Shown here in pieces: positions 56,761 through 61,531 of a DNA stretch of 64,000 bases (its first letter is position 1; the number at the start of each line of letters is the position of its first letter). The position numbers were made by a program, and so were the translations under genes. Location of the stretch: sequence record NC_054930.1. One strand, 5' to 3'. The notes under the pieces were generated by a model. The model saw only the letters and a list, made by a program, of their open reading frames with translations, was not told the origin of the DNA and made no database searches. Origin of the DNA: Escherichia phage PP01.

Positions 56761-56790
56761 GGGGACCTTTCGGTCCCCGTGTTTTTATTT
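56761..56790 (+). terminator. Rho-independent terminator after gene 54
   Basis: ggggacctttcggtcccc hairpin followed by gtgtttttattt. Confidence 0.7.
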
Positions 56791-57075
56791 ACGGAATGAA
56801 ATAAAAGCAGCAACTGAAGCAACTAAACTGTCTTCAATATAAACTTCAATTTTTACCGGAGCTTCTGACTCAAATTTACCTGTTACTACACCTTGGAAAA
56901 TGCTTTCAGTCTGCTCTGGCTTTGAAAAATTTTCAGAAGGAAAAATTCCGAACTTTTTATCTGTTCCAAAAATTTTGATAAATTCATCATAAACTGCTTC
57001 ATTAAAAGCGTTATCAGCAGGAATAACGCCTTCAACTACGAGTTCTTGACCTAAAAAGCGCAAAGAAGATTTCAT
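56785..57075 (-). CDS. Hypothetical protein downstream of the alt pair
   Basis: 96 aa ORF, last gene of the minus-strand alt transcription unit. Confidence 0.5.
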   Translation of the reverse strand: MKSSLRFLGQELVVEGVIPADNAFNEAVYDEFIKIFGTDKKFGIFPSENFSKPEQTESIFQGVVTGKFESEAPVKIEVYIEDSLVASVAAFISFRK

Positions 57076-57135
57076 TTTGTGTTCCTCATGTTATGTCAGT
57101 AAGATTATTATAACACAACACGAGGGACTTGTAAA

Positions 57136-59193
57136 CTACATTTTGAACTTTTTAGACATTCCGTTGATGTTAACCAAAGAAGCCAAGATTTGAGAAACTT
57201 CATTTTCCTCTTCTTTTGATTCTTCTACAAGGAATTGATTAAATCCAGCCATTGGACGAACTTCACCAGTTTCCATTAGATGGTCGCCATCATATACCGA
57301 TTCTTTTAATTGTTCAGAAGGAGGAACGATTGTGCCTTCGATTAAATACTTATTATAAGCAGTTTCTTTCATCATGTACGTACTCACTTTATTAATCTTC
57401 AGCAAAATTCCACGCGGTAAAATAACTTCAGCTTCTGACGGAAATCCTGATAAATGCCCTGGAACGATAACTTTGATTCGCTCAGCTCCTTTAATTACCA
57501 TACCCACGCTAGTTTCAGCATCTTCATTCGCATAAGCAGAATGACTGCCCATATGCATTAAATCTTCAGCATCAACGGAACCTTCTCCTTCACCAGAAAA
57601 TACTGCACCGGAATCATCTAGAGCCATATAGTTTTTACCATACTCACCGAAGATATTTGGTTTAAGCGATGTGGATACGAAGTTCTTGAAATAGAACATT
57701 TTATTTTCAATATTATGACGTAAAGTTTTAAAGGTAACTTCTTGTCCACGGTAAAGTGTAGTTCCTGGAGGAAGAACTGATCCTTTGGCAAAGGCAGAAT
57801 CCATTGTCTCGATGTGTTTAATAGCTCGTTCCATGTATTCTTCACGTGTAGAATCCGGTTTACCTAAAAGGAACGAGTTCATTTCAACATATGAATCTGC
57901 ACAATAATCTTCAATTACATCAGACTCAGCCTGAGTTAATCCTTTTGGAGTTACTTCAGTACTTGCATATTCATACGCTTGAGAAGCAGACTCATTAATC
58001 AATTTATAAACGCCATTCATGACAAATTGAATAATAGCTACCTTTTCATCTGGCGTGGCTTTAGAACCTTTAACTAAATCATTGACGATTTTCTTAATAA
58101 CATCAAAGCTATTAGAAATATTAATGTCAGCAAGATCGCTTAAAATTTTATCAGTTTTATAATCAAAAAATTCTTTATTCTTTAAATATTCTTGAGAACC
58201 TTGATATGTTATATCGCTCTGTAACTTGATAGATGGATCACGTAAACGTGCATGAGCCAATGCAATATGATTTCGGAAGCTTTCTAGTTCATAATCACTA
58301 GATTTAAAACGAGAAGCACTTCTCATACCACCGATAGCTCCTTTGCTGAAGTTTGAACCAACCTGAATAACGCCGGAGTTCATTGGTCCTTCTGCTTTAT
58401 ATACCGGAACTTTAGATTCAAACTCTTGGTATTTCTTAGCAGCGAAGCTATCACCCTGAAGTGAAGCATCGACGGTAGAGTATTGAGCTTGTGCTGCTAA
58501 TCGACGACTAATTTTAGTTTTCTGAATAACAGCTTGATCCGTGCGCTTATCATTTTCTAAAGCAATAGAAGCGGCAACAGCGACAGCTTTAGGAACAGCA
58601 TTACCTGTTTTAACATCTACATAAACATCACCAACCTTTGATTCAACTTTTGTGAATAACTCAGTTGAAATAGGAGGTACACCTGGAATGTCTTCTAAAT
58701 TGGCATTTTTACGGTAAACCATAATATATGCATATTTCTTATCATAGTCCCAGATTTCCTTTAAAAGAACATATCGACCTGCTCCTTTAGTACGTACTAA
58801 ACGGTCGGCAATAACTTGCATTTGACGAGCTGCGCCATTTGTTTTACTCTTTAGTACGCGGAATAAGCATGCGTCAATTTTGTACTGTTTCATTGTCTGA
58901 AGAGCAGTATCAAAAACCGCATTAATGACACCAATTGGATTTCCACCCAAGTTTTTAAGTTTAACTAATGATAGTTTCTCATTAACACCTATCATTACGA
59001 TATGCATCATTTTATCGCCTGGCTTAACGTTTTTATTCGTATCACCGCCAGAGGTGTATGTACAAAATCTAAATCCAGGAAGCACGCTTTCTTCGCCTGC
59101 TTGAATAGCAAAAATTTGAGGTATTTTATGCTTAGGATTTAAGTTAACAACCGGCGCCGAAGCGCCGTCAAATAATTCTGTAATAAGTTCCAT
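57136..59193 (-). CDS. Alt-like ADP-ribosyltransferase, second tandem paralogue (685 aa)
   Basis: N-terminus MELITELFDGASAPVVNLNPKHKIPQIFAIQ parallels the upstream paralogue; C-terminal ART signature: Arg (LYRGQ), STS motif (FVSTSL), Glu-rich catalytic region (EAEVILPRG). Confidence 0.8.
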   Translation of the reverse strand: MELITELFDGASAPVVNLNPKHKIPQIFAIQAGEESVLPGFRFCTYTSGGDTNKNVKPGDKMMHIVMIGVNEKLSLVKLKNLGGNPIGVINAVFDTALQTMKQYKIDACLFRVLKSKTNGAARQMQVIADRLVRTKGAGRYVLLKEIWDYDKKYAYIMVYRKNANLEDIPGVPPISTELFTKVESKVGDVYVDVKTGNAVPKAVAVAASIALENDKRTDQAVIQKTKISRRLAAQAQYSTVDASLQGDSFAAKKYQEFESKVPVYKAEGPMNSGVIQVGSNFSKGAIGGMRSASRFKSSDYELESFRNHIALAHARLRDPSIKLQSDITYQGSQEYLKNKEFFDYKTDKILSDLADINISNSFDVIKKIVNDLVKGSKATPDEKVAIIQFVMNGVYKLINESASQAYEYASTEVTPKGLTQAESDVIEDYCADSYVEMNSFLLGKPDSTREEYMERAIKHIETMDSAFAKGSVLPPGTTLYRGQEVTFKTLRHNIENKMFYFKNFVSTSLKPNIFGEYGKNYMALDDSGAVFSGEGEGSVDAEDLMHMGSHSAYANEDAETSVGMVIKGAERIKVIVPGHLSGFPSEAEVILPRGILLKINKVSTYMMKETAYNKYLIEGTIVPPSEQLKESVYDGDHLMETGEVRPMAGFNQFLVEESKEEENEVSQILASLVNINGMSKKFKM

Positions 59194-59196
59194 GAT

Positions 59197-61293
59197 TTAT
59201 CCTTGAACGAACTTGTAAGGCATGTTTGTAATATCTATGCAAGACGCAATAATTCCAAGAGATGATTCTACTTTCTGTTTAATATTTGATGAAACAAATG
59301 ATGCAAAGTCAACTCTGTCTTCTATTTCAATATCATCTGTCATTGCAACTACTTCGCCGGTTTCCATTAGACGGTCACCGTCATAAATTACTGATTCGGT
59401 GAGTTCTTCCGTAGTCATAACTTCAGCTTGAATGAGTTTTGTATTATTAGATGTTGTTCCGTCATTATTAGAAGCATCAGTTATTTTATTAACTTTGACC
59501 ATCAATCCGCGTGGTAGAATAACTTCAGCTTCTGTTGCTATTCCGAGACTTCCTGGATATACAACATTAACTTTATGAGCTCCATCAATTGCCCATCCTA
59601 TTTGAACTTTAACGTATTCAGGATTTTCTTTATACGCTCTTATTTCGTTTGGATTGATAGTTATTCCTTCTTCATTTTTATCAACTGTTAATTCATTACG
59701 AGCTTCTGGTTCTAAAAGACCTATACCAGCATGTGTAATTCCAAAACGTCCAAAAATGATAGGAGTTAAAGAAGTAGATACAAAATTTCTGAAATAGAAC
59801 ACTTTATTTTTAACTAGTGCTTCGTATATAGGAGCAGTCATGCTTTGAGCACGATAAACTGTAATGCCTTCTGGTATACGGTCACCATTTTCAAAAGCTG
59901 AATCTAAATTATTTATCGCAGATTCAATTTCTTTTTCACTCATTACATCATATCGTTCTGGATTGTAGCGGCCTAAAAGAAGATTATTGATGTCAGTATA
60001 TCCTGATCCACAATACTCTCTAATGCCGCGCTTTTGCGATGGAGTATATTTAGAACCATCACGTGCAATGGTAATATCAATCATTGGACCTGCACCAATT
60101 CCAGAAAAGCTATAAATCATTCGTTTGAGGAATTTAGTTTTTGCTGCGTTCCAGGAATTTTTAGTTATTTCTTCCCAGACTTCATCTGGCTGCCCTTTAC
60201 GAGTTTTATTATGTTTATCAAGCCAATTATCTTTATATTCTTCAAAGAATTGATTAACAGCTGCTGCGTATTTCTCTAAACATTTTATTGAAGTAGTTGG
60301 TTCATTTTTAATCGCATTAAGAATTACATCTTTAATTTTTTCAGAAACTTCATTAACCTCACTTTTTGAAAAGAATTTATAATCATAGTGAAGTTCATCT
60401 GCAGTTCCTTCAGCAATAATTTTTGCTGCCTTAGTTTTAGAAGCTAATGAATTAATTCCAAGTTTCATTTCTTCTGCTTCAGGAATTAAAGGAGCTGTAG
60501 CAGGTTTATTGAAATTAGCTGCGGTAGATTCATACTTCTGGAATAATTCACTTTCAAATCTAGAAGATTCTAATGATTGACTTTGCGCAATTGCTCTACG
60601 GGAAATTTTAACTTTAACGATTACAGCTTGGTCAGAACGTTTATCATTTTCTTGTGCAATAGAAGCAGCAATTGCCTCATTTTTAGTTACTTGAGCTCCA
60701 GTATCTTTATTAATATAAACATCGCCGACTTTCGATTCAACTTTAGTAAAGAGCTCGGTACTAATTTCCGGAACTCCTGGAATGTCTTCTAGTGATACAT
60801 TTTTGCGATGTATAAGAATATATGCATACTTTTTATCATAATCCCAGAGTTCCTTAAGAAGGACGTATCTGCCACCTGAACGACTACGGATAAGTCTATC
60901 AGCAATAACTTGAATTTGTCGAGCTTGACCAGCAGTTTTAGACTTAAGAATACGAAGCATGCAGGCATCAATTTTATACTGACGCATTGTTTGCATTGCA
61001 ATAGTAAAAACTGAATTGATATAATTAATTGGGCTTGGACCGAGACCTTTTAATTTAGCAATTGAACCTTTAGCAGTTAATGTAAAAGGAACAATATGCA
61101 TCATTTTATCGCCCATTTTTAAATCGCGATTAGTATCACCTCCAGATGTATAGGTACATAAACGAAAGCCTGGTTGTTCAATTGCGTCATCAACGTGAAC
61201 TGAAAAAATTTGTGGTATTTTCTTCTTTGGATTTAAGTTTGTAATCGGAAGAGTAGTATCTTCGTCAAATAATTCTGTAATAAGTTCCATCAT
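59197..61293 (-). CDS. alt: Alt ADP-ribosyltransferase (698 aa), packaged head protein
   Basis: N-terminus MMELITELFDEDTTLPITNL... as I recall for T4 Alt; ART signature VYRAQ, FVSTSL, EAEVILPRG; own late promoter. Confidence 0.8.
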   Translation of the reverse strand: MMELITELFDEDTTLPITNLNPKKKIPQIFSVHVDDAIEQPGFRLCTYTSGGDTNRDLKMGDKMMHIVPFTLTAKGSIAKLKGLGPSPINYINSVFTIAMQTMRQYKIDACMLRILKSKTAGQARQIQVIADRLIRSRSGGRYVLLKELWDYDKKYAYILIHRKNVSLEDIPGVPEISTELFTKVESKVGDVYINKDTGAQVTKNEAIAASIAQENDKRSDQAVIVKVKISRRAIAQSQSLESSRFESELFQKYESTAANFNKPATAPLIPEAEEMKLGINSLASKTKAAKIIAEGTADELHYDYKFFSKSEVNEVSEKIKDVILNAIKNEPTTSIKCLEKYAAAVNQFFEEYKDNWLDKHNKTRKGQPDEVWEEITKNSWNAAKTKFLKRMIYSFSGIGAGPMIDITIARDGSKYTPSQKRGIREYCGSGYTDINNLLLGRYNPERYDVMSEKEIESAINNLDSAFENGDRIPEGITVYRAQSMTAPIYEALVKNKVFYFRNFVSTSLTPIIFGRFGITHAGIGLLEPEARNELTVDKNEEGITINPNEIRAYKENPEYVKVQIGWAIDGAHKVNVVYPGSLGIATEAEVILPRGLMVKVNKITDASNNDGTTSNNTKLIQAEVMTTEELTESVIYDGDRLMETGEVVAMTDDIEIEDRVDFASFVSSNIKQKVESSLGIIASCIDITNMPYKFVQG

Positions 61294-61313
61294 ATCCTCT
61301 CTAGTGTTTATTC

Positions 61314-61321
61314 TATTTATA
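61314..61321 (-). promoter_or_regulatory. Late promoter TATAAATA for the alt operon
   Basis: Plus-strand tatttata, 21 nt upstream of the ATG at 61293. Confidence 0.55.
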
Positions 61322-61325
61322 AAAT

Positions 61326-61343
61326 TAAAGGCCCGAAGGCCTT
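61326..61343 (-). terminator. Hairpin terminator between the 61343..61531 ORF and alt
   Basis: aaaggcccgaaggccttt hairpin with a U-rich tract on the minus strand. Confidence 0.5.
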
Positions 61344-61531
61344 TAATAATCTAGTGGTAAGAGAGTACGGTATATTTCAAACTTTGGCCCTTTTTCATAG
61401 GCATCAAATGTTTCTGTAAATTTATTATAAGCATACGCATCTACAAATTCGAGAATGACTTGCGATACCGAAGTAGAAACATCTCCACCTTCTTTTTGAG
61501 CTATAACAATTGTTTCTAAGTAAGCTTTCAT
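61343..61531 (-). CDS. Hypothetical small protein (30.9-like position)
   Basis: 62 aa ORF whose start overlaps the ligase stop (ATGA). Confidence 0.5.
   Translation of the reverse strand: MKAYLETIVIAQKEGGDVSTSVSQVILEFVDAYAYNKFTETFDAYEKGPKFEIYRTLLPLDY

Follow-up and report, generated by a model that had tools for sequence, protein, structure and literature searches.

The alt-alt2 tandem of Escherichia phage PP01: a standard T-even gene pair that probably encodes two distinct injected ADP-ribosyltransferases

Alt is the textbook example of a phage-injected enzyme, and nearly all work on this ADP-ribosyltransferase (ART) was carried out with phage T4. T4 Alt is a protein of the prohead core, present in about 40 copies and injected together with the DNA (PMC9026906; PMC5694885). 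Its cleavage by gp21 after ITE-6 and LTE-619, mapped by mass spectrometry, results in a mature protein of 68.2 kDa (PMC5694885), and the protein is not essential in the laboratory (PMC9026906). Both the T4 genome annotation and Nolan et al. 2006 (PMC1524935) had already pointed to paralogues of Alt. Here, two adjacent Alt-type genes, alt and alt2 (gene products Alt1 and Alt2), are described in a T4-like (Tequatrovirus) genome segment of Escherichia phage PP01 (NC_054930.1; the analysed stretch of 64,000 nucleotides (nt) is termed the window), where they are located between the baseplate genes 48/54 and the DNA ligase gene 30. The best overall explanation for this pair is a standard T-even alt-alt2 tandem, the products of which are probably two distinct injected ARTs.

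The closest described locus is found in Bas37 (Escherichia phage KarlGJung, BASEL, MZ501089), where bas37_0033 is annotated in GenBank as 'Alt' and bas37_0032 as 'ADP-ribosyltransferase Alt2'. Gene order, gene lengths, late promoter and terminator are all alike and the proteins are 99.3% (Alt) and 98.7% (Alt2) identical to those of the window (5 and 9 substitutions), which makes it effectively the same locus. One of the substitutions in Alt2, K630E, affects P2 of the predicted cleavage site (LKE in the window, LEE in Bas37), and the site still fits L-x-E. Two Alt-like genes are annotated in hundreds of GenBank records. The locus is already known and ordinary, and its second enzyme is annotated as Alt2 in Bas37; new are the T4 stump and the underlying deletion, the strength of selection and the swapping of cargos on a conserved frame. 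A literature search for a second Alt or Alt2 paralogue returned nothing relevant. A paper on T-series phage stocks contains just a single nucleotide polymorphism in T4 alt, and a paper on anti-restriction by injected proteins does not mention Alt.

Alt1 and Alt2 share 41% amino acid sequence identity (BLASTP, E = 8e-157), distributed unevenly over the proteins: approximately 67-68% in residues 1-238, 12-16% in residues 239-410, 33-34% in the ART core and 42-44% in the C-terminal tail. The Alt-specific N-domain of about 230 residues is 99% (Alt1) and 67% (Alt2) identical to that of T4 Alt. Both proteins match the Pfam family PF03496 (ADPrib_exo_Tox; 1.8e-37 for Alt1, 2.5e-20 for Alt2) and, from end to end, PHROG 802 'Alt-like RNA polymerase ADP-ribosyltransferase' (2.8e-272 and 2.7e-255). 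The domain pair PF03496 and PF26846 is precomputed across the Alt family, with PF26846 found on all homologues, while no match for Alt1, Alt2 or the product of the neighbouring gene alt.-3 was obtained with the NCBIfam and PADLOC profiles. The catalytic motifs are VYR480, VS505TS and E587-A-E589 in Alt1 and LYR482, VS507TS and E587-A-E589 in Alt2. In an alignment of 36 Alt sequences, E6, R482, S507, E587 and E589 (Alt2 numbering) are invariant and E631 is nearly so. An earlier note on this DNA had described a shared Alt-like N-terminal region, a complete R-S-E signature in both proteins and divergence around the catalytic core and at the C-termini, all of which agrees with these results (MELITE, for example, is identical in both, and Arg, STS and ExE are all present). 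The catalytic Glu and Arg are kept in both copies, and the identity of 41% is far below the 95% which the note had taken as the mark of a simple duplication or an assembly artefact. Judged by these alignments, the similarity of Alt1 and Alt2 is due neither to chance nor to a recent duplication.

Structure prediction, proposed in the same note, could be performed for both proteins. The AlphaFold models (pLDDT, i.e. the predicted local distance difference test, 76.8 for Alt2 and 77.2 for Alt1) have the same architecture, in which an alpha/beta N-domain is followed by a long stretch of helices and then by the beta-core of the ART, and their low-confidence termini coincide with the known propeptides. 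Both match R-S-E ARTs, arginine-specific and related ones, namely Vis, C3, CDTa, iota Ia, VIP2 and Certhrax. The catalytic domains thereby show the structural match to the C3/VIP2-like R-S-E ART fold. The largest structural difference between Alt1 and Alt2 is an insert of 67-78 residues between STS and ExE, which is helical and fairly confident in Alt1, and acidic with low confidence in Alt2. A PDB sequence search with Alt2 gave no match, and as yet there is no experimental structure of an Alt protein.

By analogy with T4 Alt, Alt2 is likely co-packaged and processed by gp21, because it has the MELITE propeptide and a C-terminal L-x-E site, and because of a hybrid in Yersinia phage PST (see below), which is the sole Alt of this phage, so that an alt1 N-terminus carries an alt2 cargo there. 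Cutting the T4 Alt sequence at both gp21 sites gives 68.2 kDa and reproduces the reported mass. At the N-terminus, the propeptide MELITE is the same in Alt1 and Alt2 and E6, behind which gp21 is predicted to cut, is invariant in the family. The second predicted gp21 site is the L-x-E motif near the C-terminus (LTE632/SVIYDGD in Alt1, LKE631/SVYDGD in Alt2), and the predicted mature masses are 70.2 kDa for Alt1 and 69.1 kDa for Alt2. The isoelectric points are similar in T4 Alt, Alt1 and Alt2 with approximately 9.5 for the N-domain, 5.3 for the cargo and 4.1-4.6 for the C-propeptide. Alternatively, Alt2 might be a functional ART outside the virion, acting late in the producing cell on host or phage proteins, or a competitor or regulator of Alt packaging. 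We regard this as rather unlikely. Such a role would be in line with the late synthesis of Alt2 from the same promoter as Alt, with the enrichment of insertions in its gene under Mokosh (see below), which fits a limiting dose of packaged Alt or an antagonism, and with the fact that no sign of Alt2 in particles was found (the relevant rows of the fD1 proteome being illegible). Against it, Alt2 and its Dhakavirus orthologues have all kept MELITE with the invariant E6, the C-terminal L-x-E/SV(I)YDGD and a basic N-domain, a conservation that is difficult to account for unless the protein is targeted to the prohead and cut by gp21. The use of an alt2 cargo on an alt1 N-terminus as the only Alt of PST speaks against it, too.

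Functional data on both genes come from a HIDEN-SEQ preprint (10.1101/2025.11.20.689424), of which the available parts are considered here. According to these, T4 depends on Alt for evading the Mokosh type I defence, and alt of Bas37 is conditionally essential against Mokosh. Ectopically provided T4 Alt rescues Mokosh-sensitive phages, whereas Alt of Bas37, which is of the window's Alt1 type, does not. Figures for Alt2 are contained in the supplementary tables, where they are given for CFT073, CFE299, CFE331, CFE336 and Mokosh type I and left without comment by the authors. In the reference library, Alt is listed with 164 of 179 TA sites hit (mean ~204) as 'Non-essential', Alt2 with 116 of 164 (mean ~44) as 'Intermediate' and alt.-3 (bas37_0031) with 19 of 20 as 'Non-essential'. 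With Mokosh type I compared to K-12 ΔRM, the insertion value for Alt fell from 213.1 to 0.0 (log2 fold change -7.74, adjusted p ≈ 0), that for Alt2 rose from 41.6 to 105.3 (+1.32, adjusted p ≈ 0) and alt.-3 was not significantly altered (-0.18). In the comparison of K-12 with CFE331, Alt was reduced (-1.56, adjusted p ≈ 0), without significant changes of Alt2 (+0.12) and alt.-3 (+0.24). With the uropathogenic strain CFT073 (UPEC), insertions in alt.-3 were significantly depleted (-2.70, adjusted p 0.02), which makes the gene conditionally important there, and no significant change was listed for Alt (+0.01) and Alt2 (+0.11). None of the three was significantly altered with CFE299 (Alt -0.06, Alt2 +0.19, alt.-3 +0.34) or CFE336 (Alt +0.11, Alt2 +0.36, alt.-3 +0.23).

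Since the transposon phenotypes of Alt and Alt2 under Mokosh type I are opposite in these tables, the two proteins are not redundant. The earlier proposal of two distinct effectors is supported by this result (-7.74 versus +1.32), which was obtained with proteins 98.7-99.3% identical to those of the window. The idea that the pair counters host defences, also put forward in the note, is backed by experiment for Alt with respect to Mokosh type I and so far not for Alt2, for which the tables list no requirement in any of the five conditions. That Alt1 and Alt2 are redundant and merely raise the dose of one activity appears very unlikely. Shared architecture, catalytic motifs and operon would be compatible with redundancy, as would the observation that one copy suffices in T4. 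However, the ART cores are just 33-34% and the helical regions 12-16% identical, and each type forms a distinct lineage that is kept across genera. As far as the tables show, Alt2 is no substitute for Alt under Mokosh type I, and one and the same screen gave the two genes values of opposite sign, by which redundancy is largely refuted.

Alt1 is the positional orthologue of T4 Alt (gpAlt, NP_049811), with which it shares the gp21 sites, late expression and the R-S-ExE motifs. The N-domain (residues 1-246) is about 99% and the C-propeptide/tail about 91% identical to T4, in contrast to the helical region (32-33%) and the ART domain (66%), which represent a different cargo allele. In line with this, the synonymous divergence (dS) between the two genes is 0.15 in the N-domain and 0.22 in the tail, compared to 1.1-1.35 in the middle part. 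From this mosaic of dS and identity it follows that the cargo was replaced by recombination. Alt2 has the architecture of T4 Alt as well (42% identity), but no intact counterpart of Alt2 is encoded in T4. Instead, T4 alt.-1/alt.-2 aligns with nt 1-348 of alt2 in the window (approximately 95% DNA identity), with a 1-nt deletion in an A-run that splits the reading frame. The T4 sequence then jumps from alt2 nt 348 to the last bases of the gene, so that 1,699 bp including the whole ART domain are gone; the deletion is flanked by CTAAA(G/A)AGT-type repeats (Table 1). The break at alt2 nt 348 recurs in about 98 other records, and phage VEc20 combines a window-type alt1 with a T4-type alt2 stump. 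In the GenBank note on alt.-1/alt.-2, the two frames are put down to an early duplication of the 5' part of alt; they are recognized here as the stump of a full-length paralogue. T4 is a deletion derivative of the two-gene arrangement and alt.-1/alt.-2 is a frameshifted remnant of alt2. This loss explains why the classical literature does not know the second enzyme.

Purifying selection on both genes is strong. The pairwise ratio of nonsynonymous to synonymous substitutions (dN/dS) is 0.03-0.06 for alt1 and alt2 among the window, G50, T2 and VEc20, and the same range is found for alt2 (window, G50 and T2) when the catalytic half is considered. It is therefore highly improbable that Alt2 is decaying or catalytically dead, as it is in T4. 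T4 and approximately 98 other records keep just a stump, and Alt itself is non-essential in the laboratory (PMC9026906), but a full-length alt2 is found in about 400 records, its catalytic residues are all invariant, the low dN/dS includes the catalytic region and alt2 insertions are under-represented in the Bas37 library according to the available tables. That the pair stems from faulty assembly or from a very recent duplication, for which nothing but the tandem layout speaks, can be dismissed with near certainty, because the identity is 41% and synonymous sites are saturated (dS 1.0-1.5), and the layout is identical in hundreds of independent genomes.

The arrangement is widespread. The full locus of 4.9 kb is covered to at least 80% in 336 phage records and at least 80% of alt2 is present in 398 records. 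A single copy of the catalytic region of alt2 was found in each of 400 records, among them T2, T6, AR1, wV7 and RB7. Protein clusters comprise 772 members for Alt2 and 641 for Alt1, and 1,200 Straboviridae records together contain 1,816 Alt N-domains. The synteny gene 54 - alt genes - DNA ligase gene 30 is common to the window, T2, G50, Bas37 and PSD2002. Phages of the genera Dhakavirus and Jiangsuvirus carry three tandem Alt copies. In Dhakavirus PSD2002 (L009, 5012-11124), the order is a third type, an alt1-type, an alt2-type and a homologue of alt.-3. The ART of the alt1-type copy is 95% identical to that of the window's Alt1, while the alt2-type copy is 56% (ART), 48% (helical region) and 67% (tail/C-propeptide) identical to the window's Alt2. 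As this gene order is the same as in the window, the split of alt1 and alt2 predates these genera. The alt-alt2 tandem is the common state in T-even phages and probably the ancestral one. An 'expanded' effector set, as suggested in the earlier note, is not in accordance with a pair that is common (approximately 400 genomes, synteny in Dhakavirus, a deletion remnant in T4); there is no expansion.

A triple array was also observed in Pseudomonas phage PspYZU05 (L010, 4978, 6977 and 8969), where the late promoter motif TATAAATA is located approximately 25 nt 5' of each copy; the Alt region of PSD2002 contains no exact TATAAATA, and the window has one motif for two genes. A fragment of Alt2 was found in the record of Staphylococcus phage SAJK-IND (MG010123.1, 32042-32170), where it forms the last 129 nt of a 32-kb record and encodes 43 residues with 97.7% identity to T-even Alt2. 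This is most likely a contamination or a chimeric assembly.

Several observations point to an exchange of cargos between Alt proteins. The N-domains group by genome (67% identity in Tequatrovirus, 62-67% in Dhakavirus, 78-80% in Jiangsuvirus), while the cargos group by type. A recent gene conversion of the alt1 and alt2 N-domains was considered and rejected, since dS is saturated there (1.53) as it is in the cargo (1.0-1.2). The clustering of the N-domains may go back to ancient conversion or to repeated cargo replacement; the data fit either. A recent transfer was detected for the ART of the alt1-type gene of Dhakavirus, with a dS of 0.57 compared to >1.9 elsewhere in the gene, which indicates that the ART module of alt was exchanged between genera recently. 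The ART encoded in the cargo part of the window's alt (59400-60570, minus strand) is 94-95% identical to that of the middle Dhakavirus Alt, the N-domains just 46-47%. Yersinia phage PST (L004, 3741-5801) has one alt of 686 amino acids (aa), annotated simply as 'Alt'. Up to about nt 300 (around codon 100) its sequence is that of alt1 and from there on that of alt2, and a single crossover accounts for 309 of the 327 informative sites. This pattern identifies the PST gene as an alt1::alt2 recombinant, which arose by unequal crossing-over between the paralogous N-domains.

Taken as a tandem of two injected enzymes, the locus would function as follows. Both genes would be transcribed from the single late promoter and translated back to back. 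The products share a frame consisting of the 6-residue propeptide MELITE, a basic N-domain of approximately 230 residues and an acidic C-propeptide, which encloses a variable cargo made up of the helical region and a C3/VIP2-type ART domain with R-S-ExE. As known for T4 Alt, both precursors (78.0 and 75.9 kDa) would enter the prohead core via the shared frame, and gp21 would trim them after ITE6 and L-T/K-E (632 in Alt1, 631 in Alt2). The mature enzymes would then be injected with the DNA and mono-ADP-ribosylate arginines of host proteins in an NAD+-dependent manner. The cargos diverged anciently, with Alt serving to evade Mokosh type I and Alt2 presumably acting on a substrate set of its own. 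The arginine specificity and the distinct targets of Alt2 are inferred.

Some points weigh against this explanation. T4 and about 100 other phages live without alt2. Direct evidence for Alt2 in the virion or for its cleavage was not found in the searched literature; in the one Tequatrovirus virion proteome located, that of fD1, the entries g190-g202 are illegible, and many non-structural proteins are listed as particle-associated there. No biochemical assay of Alt2 and no data demonstrating a host target of its own were found in the searched literature either, and the available transposon tables contain no conditional defect of Alt2 insertions on CFT073, CFE299, CFE331, CFE336 or Mokosh type I. 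The transposon data are also open to polarity (alt is located 5' of alt2 in one operon) or to toxic truncation products. The structural models are moderately confident only, and residues 518-554 of the Alt2 insert have a pLDDT below 50.

The enrichment of alt2 knock-outs under Mokosh may be due to a competition of Alt and Alt2 for limited sites in the core, where a loss of Alt2 would raise the dose of Alt. Another reading is that the activity of Alt2 may aggravate Mokosh. A more far-reaching and tentative idea, which we consider possible but doubtful, is that the alt locus serves as a platform for swapping effector cargos. It would combine a lineage-specific packaging frame with exchangeable ART cargos, for which recombination would take place inside a T-even genus as well as across genera, and co-resident paralogues would compete for a fixed number of prohead sites. 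Alt2 would thus limit the dose of injected Alt, and for this reason its knock-outs would gain fitness under Mokosh type I. Alt2 would in addition modify a separate host target that is relevant in E. coli K-12, which would account for its 'Intermediate' essentiality, and this target would have been missed because T4 lacks alt2.

The features of the locus are compiled in Table 1. Two adjacent ORFs on the minus strand had been reported before, and their coordinates proved exact (59197..61293, 698 aa, and 57136..59193, 685 aa). As to the start of the first gene, the ORF opens with ATG ATG (61288-61293, minus strand) and can be read from 61293 as 698 aa; the second ATG (61290, 697 aa) is more likely, as it matches T4 Alt, which starts from MELITE, and the G50 annotation. 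Thus, the ORF of the earlier note stands and its start most likely does not. Public records differ in this respect, with 698 aa in Bas37, 697 aa in G50 and T2 and a start from MELITE in T4. Between the alt stop and the alt2 start codon, there are 3 nt, and alt2 has an AAGGA ribosome-binding site. The single late promoter named in the note was found again as an exact TATAAATA, the sole copy upstream of or inside the pair, and its promoter function is putative. In the whole window, 23 exact sites were observed compared to 10 expected. In a search for a separate hidden late promoter of alt2, no exact TATAAATA was found, and just variants with one mismatch, which may or may not be active, occur within alt1.

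Table 1. Position of the genes and putative signals of the alt-alt2 locus in the window
Feature	Coordinates	Strand	Remarks
alt (Alt1), 697 aa, orthologue of T4 Alt	59197..61290	minus	precursor 78.0 kDa; catalytic R480, S505, E587/E589; predicted gp21 sites after ITE6 and LTE632
alt2 (Alt2), 685 aa, second Alt-family ART	57136..59193	minus	precursor 75.9 kDa; catalytic R482, S507, E587/E589; predicted gp21 sites after ITE6 and LKE631
T4-type late promoter motif TATAAATA	61314..61321	minus	~21 nt 5' of alt start codon; putative promoter
Terminator-like hairpin AAAGGCC-TTCG-GGCCTTT, then AATTTT	61327..61344	minus	just 3' of alt.1; G50 equivalent annotated as putative transcriptional terminator; identical in Bas37
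Early (sigma-70/T4-early type) promoter-like site GTTTACA-17-TATAAT, extended TG	57107..57135	minus	11/12 matches, best in region; precedes alt.-3
alt.-3, 96 aa, DUF5498	56785..57075	minus	PF17602 (1.4e-64); neighbour, no Alt paralogue; counterpart of T4 alt.-3
GC-rich hairpin GGGGACC-GAAA-GGTCCCC, bidirectional terminator shared with gp54	56761..56778	minus	ends alt/alt2/alt.-3 transcripts; terminator in G50 annotation
alt2 stretch bounded by imperfect direct repeats CTAAAGAGT (58854-58846) and CTAAAAAGT (57155-57147)	57147..58854	minus	1,699 bp between them missing in T4

The terminator-like hairpin 5' of alt was read from the sequence and is absent from the output of a simple terminator scan; it would insulate alt from the transcripts of alt.1 and gene 30 upstream. 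The gene alt.1 itself (62 aa, 61343-61531, minus strand), located 5' of alt, overlaps the end of the DNA ligase gene by 4 nt, and its product is a full-length match to PF24647 'Phage_blade' (1.9e-29). Downstream of the pair, the note had correctly placed a 96-aa ORF, alt.-3. It is not a mere tail of the late operon, as it has an early-type promoter of its own, the -35 element of which starts within the alt2 stop codon; the T4 early -35 consensus is GTTTAC (PMC1524935). No terminator was found between alt2 and alt.-3. The mutations by which T4 escapes the CmdTAC defence extend Alt.-3 at its C-terminus (PMC11618068).

With respect to its second enzyme, T4 is a deletion mutant, while approximately three quarters of the sequenced Tequatroviruses, including T2 and T6, keep Alt2. 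Alt2 is conserved and widespread, and it probably acts as an injected enzyme that modifies the host. The published transposon tables, in their available part, already set it apart from Alt. The swapping of cargos bears on how T-even phages diversify their injected effectors against defences such as Mokosh.

Among the systems known so far, C3/VIP2-like toxins (Vis, C3bot, CDTa, iota Ia, VIP2 and Certhrax) share 14-25% sequence identity with the Alt proteins, which in addition contain the STS-ExE insert of 67-78 residues, a phage-specific N-domain and the propeptides. T4 ModA and ModB belong to the same R-S-E ART clade and their R, S and ExE positions can be aligned with those of the Alt proteins, but they are approximately 200 aa long, lack the Alt N-domain and the propeptides and are encoded elsewhere in the T4 genome. 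An identity of the window's proteins as early ARTs of the ModA/ModB type was rejected (BLASTP, E = 0.45 for ModA and 2.1 for ModB), the proteins being multi-domain and 685-697 aa in length. The internal proteins IPI-IPIII of T4 and the hypervariable ip locus (and Bas37_0260) resemble Alt in being targeted to the prohead, processed by gp21 and injected, with a variable cargo and a targeting signal that is kept (PMC9026906). The T4 internal proteins are small and non-enzymatic and have a capsid-targeting sequence of 10 residues, whereas Alt uses a domain of approximately 230 residues and is processed at the C-terminus as well.

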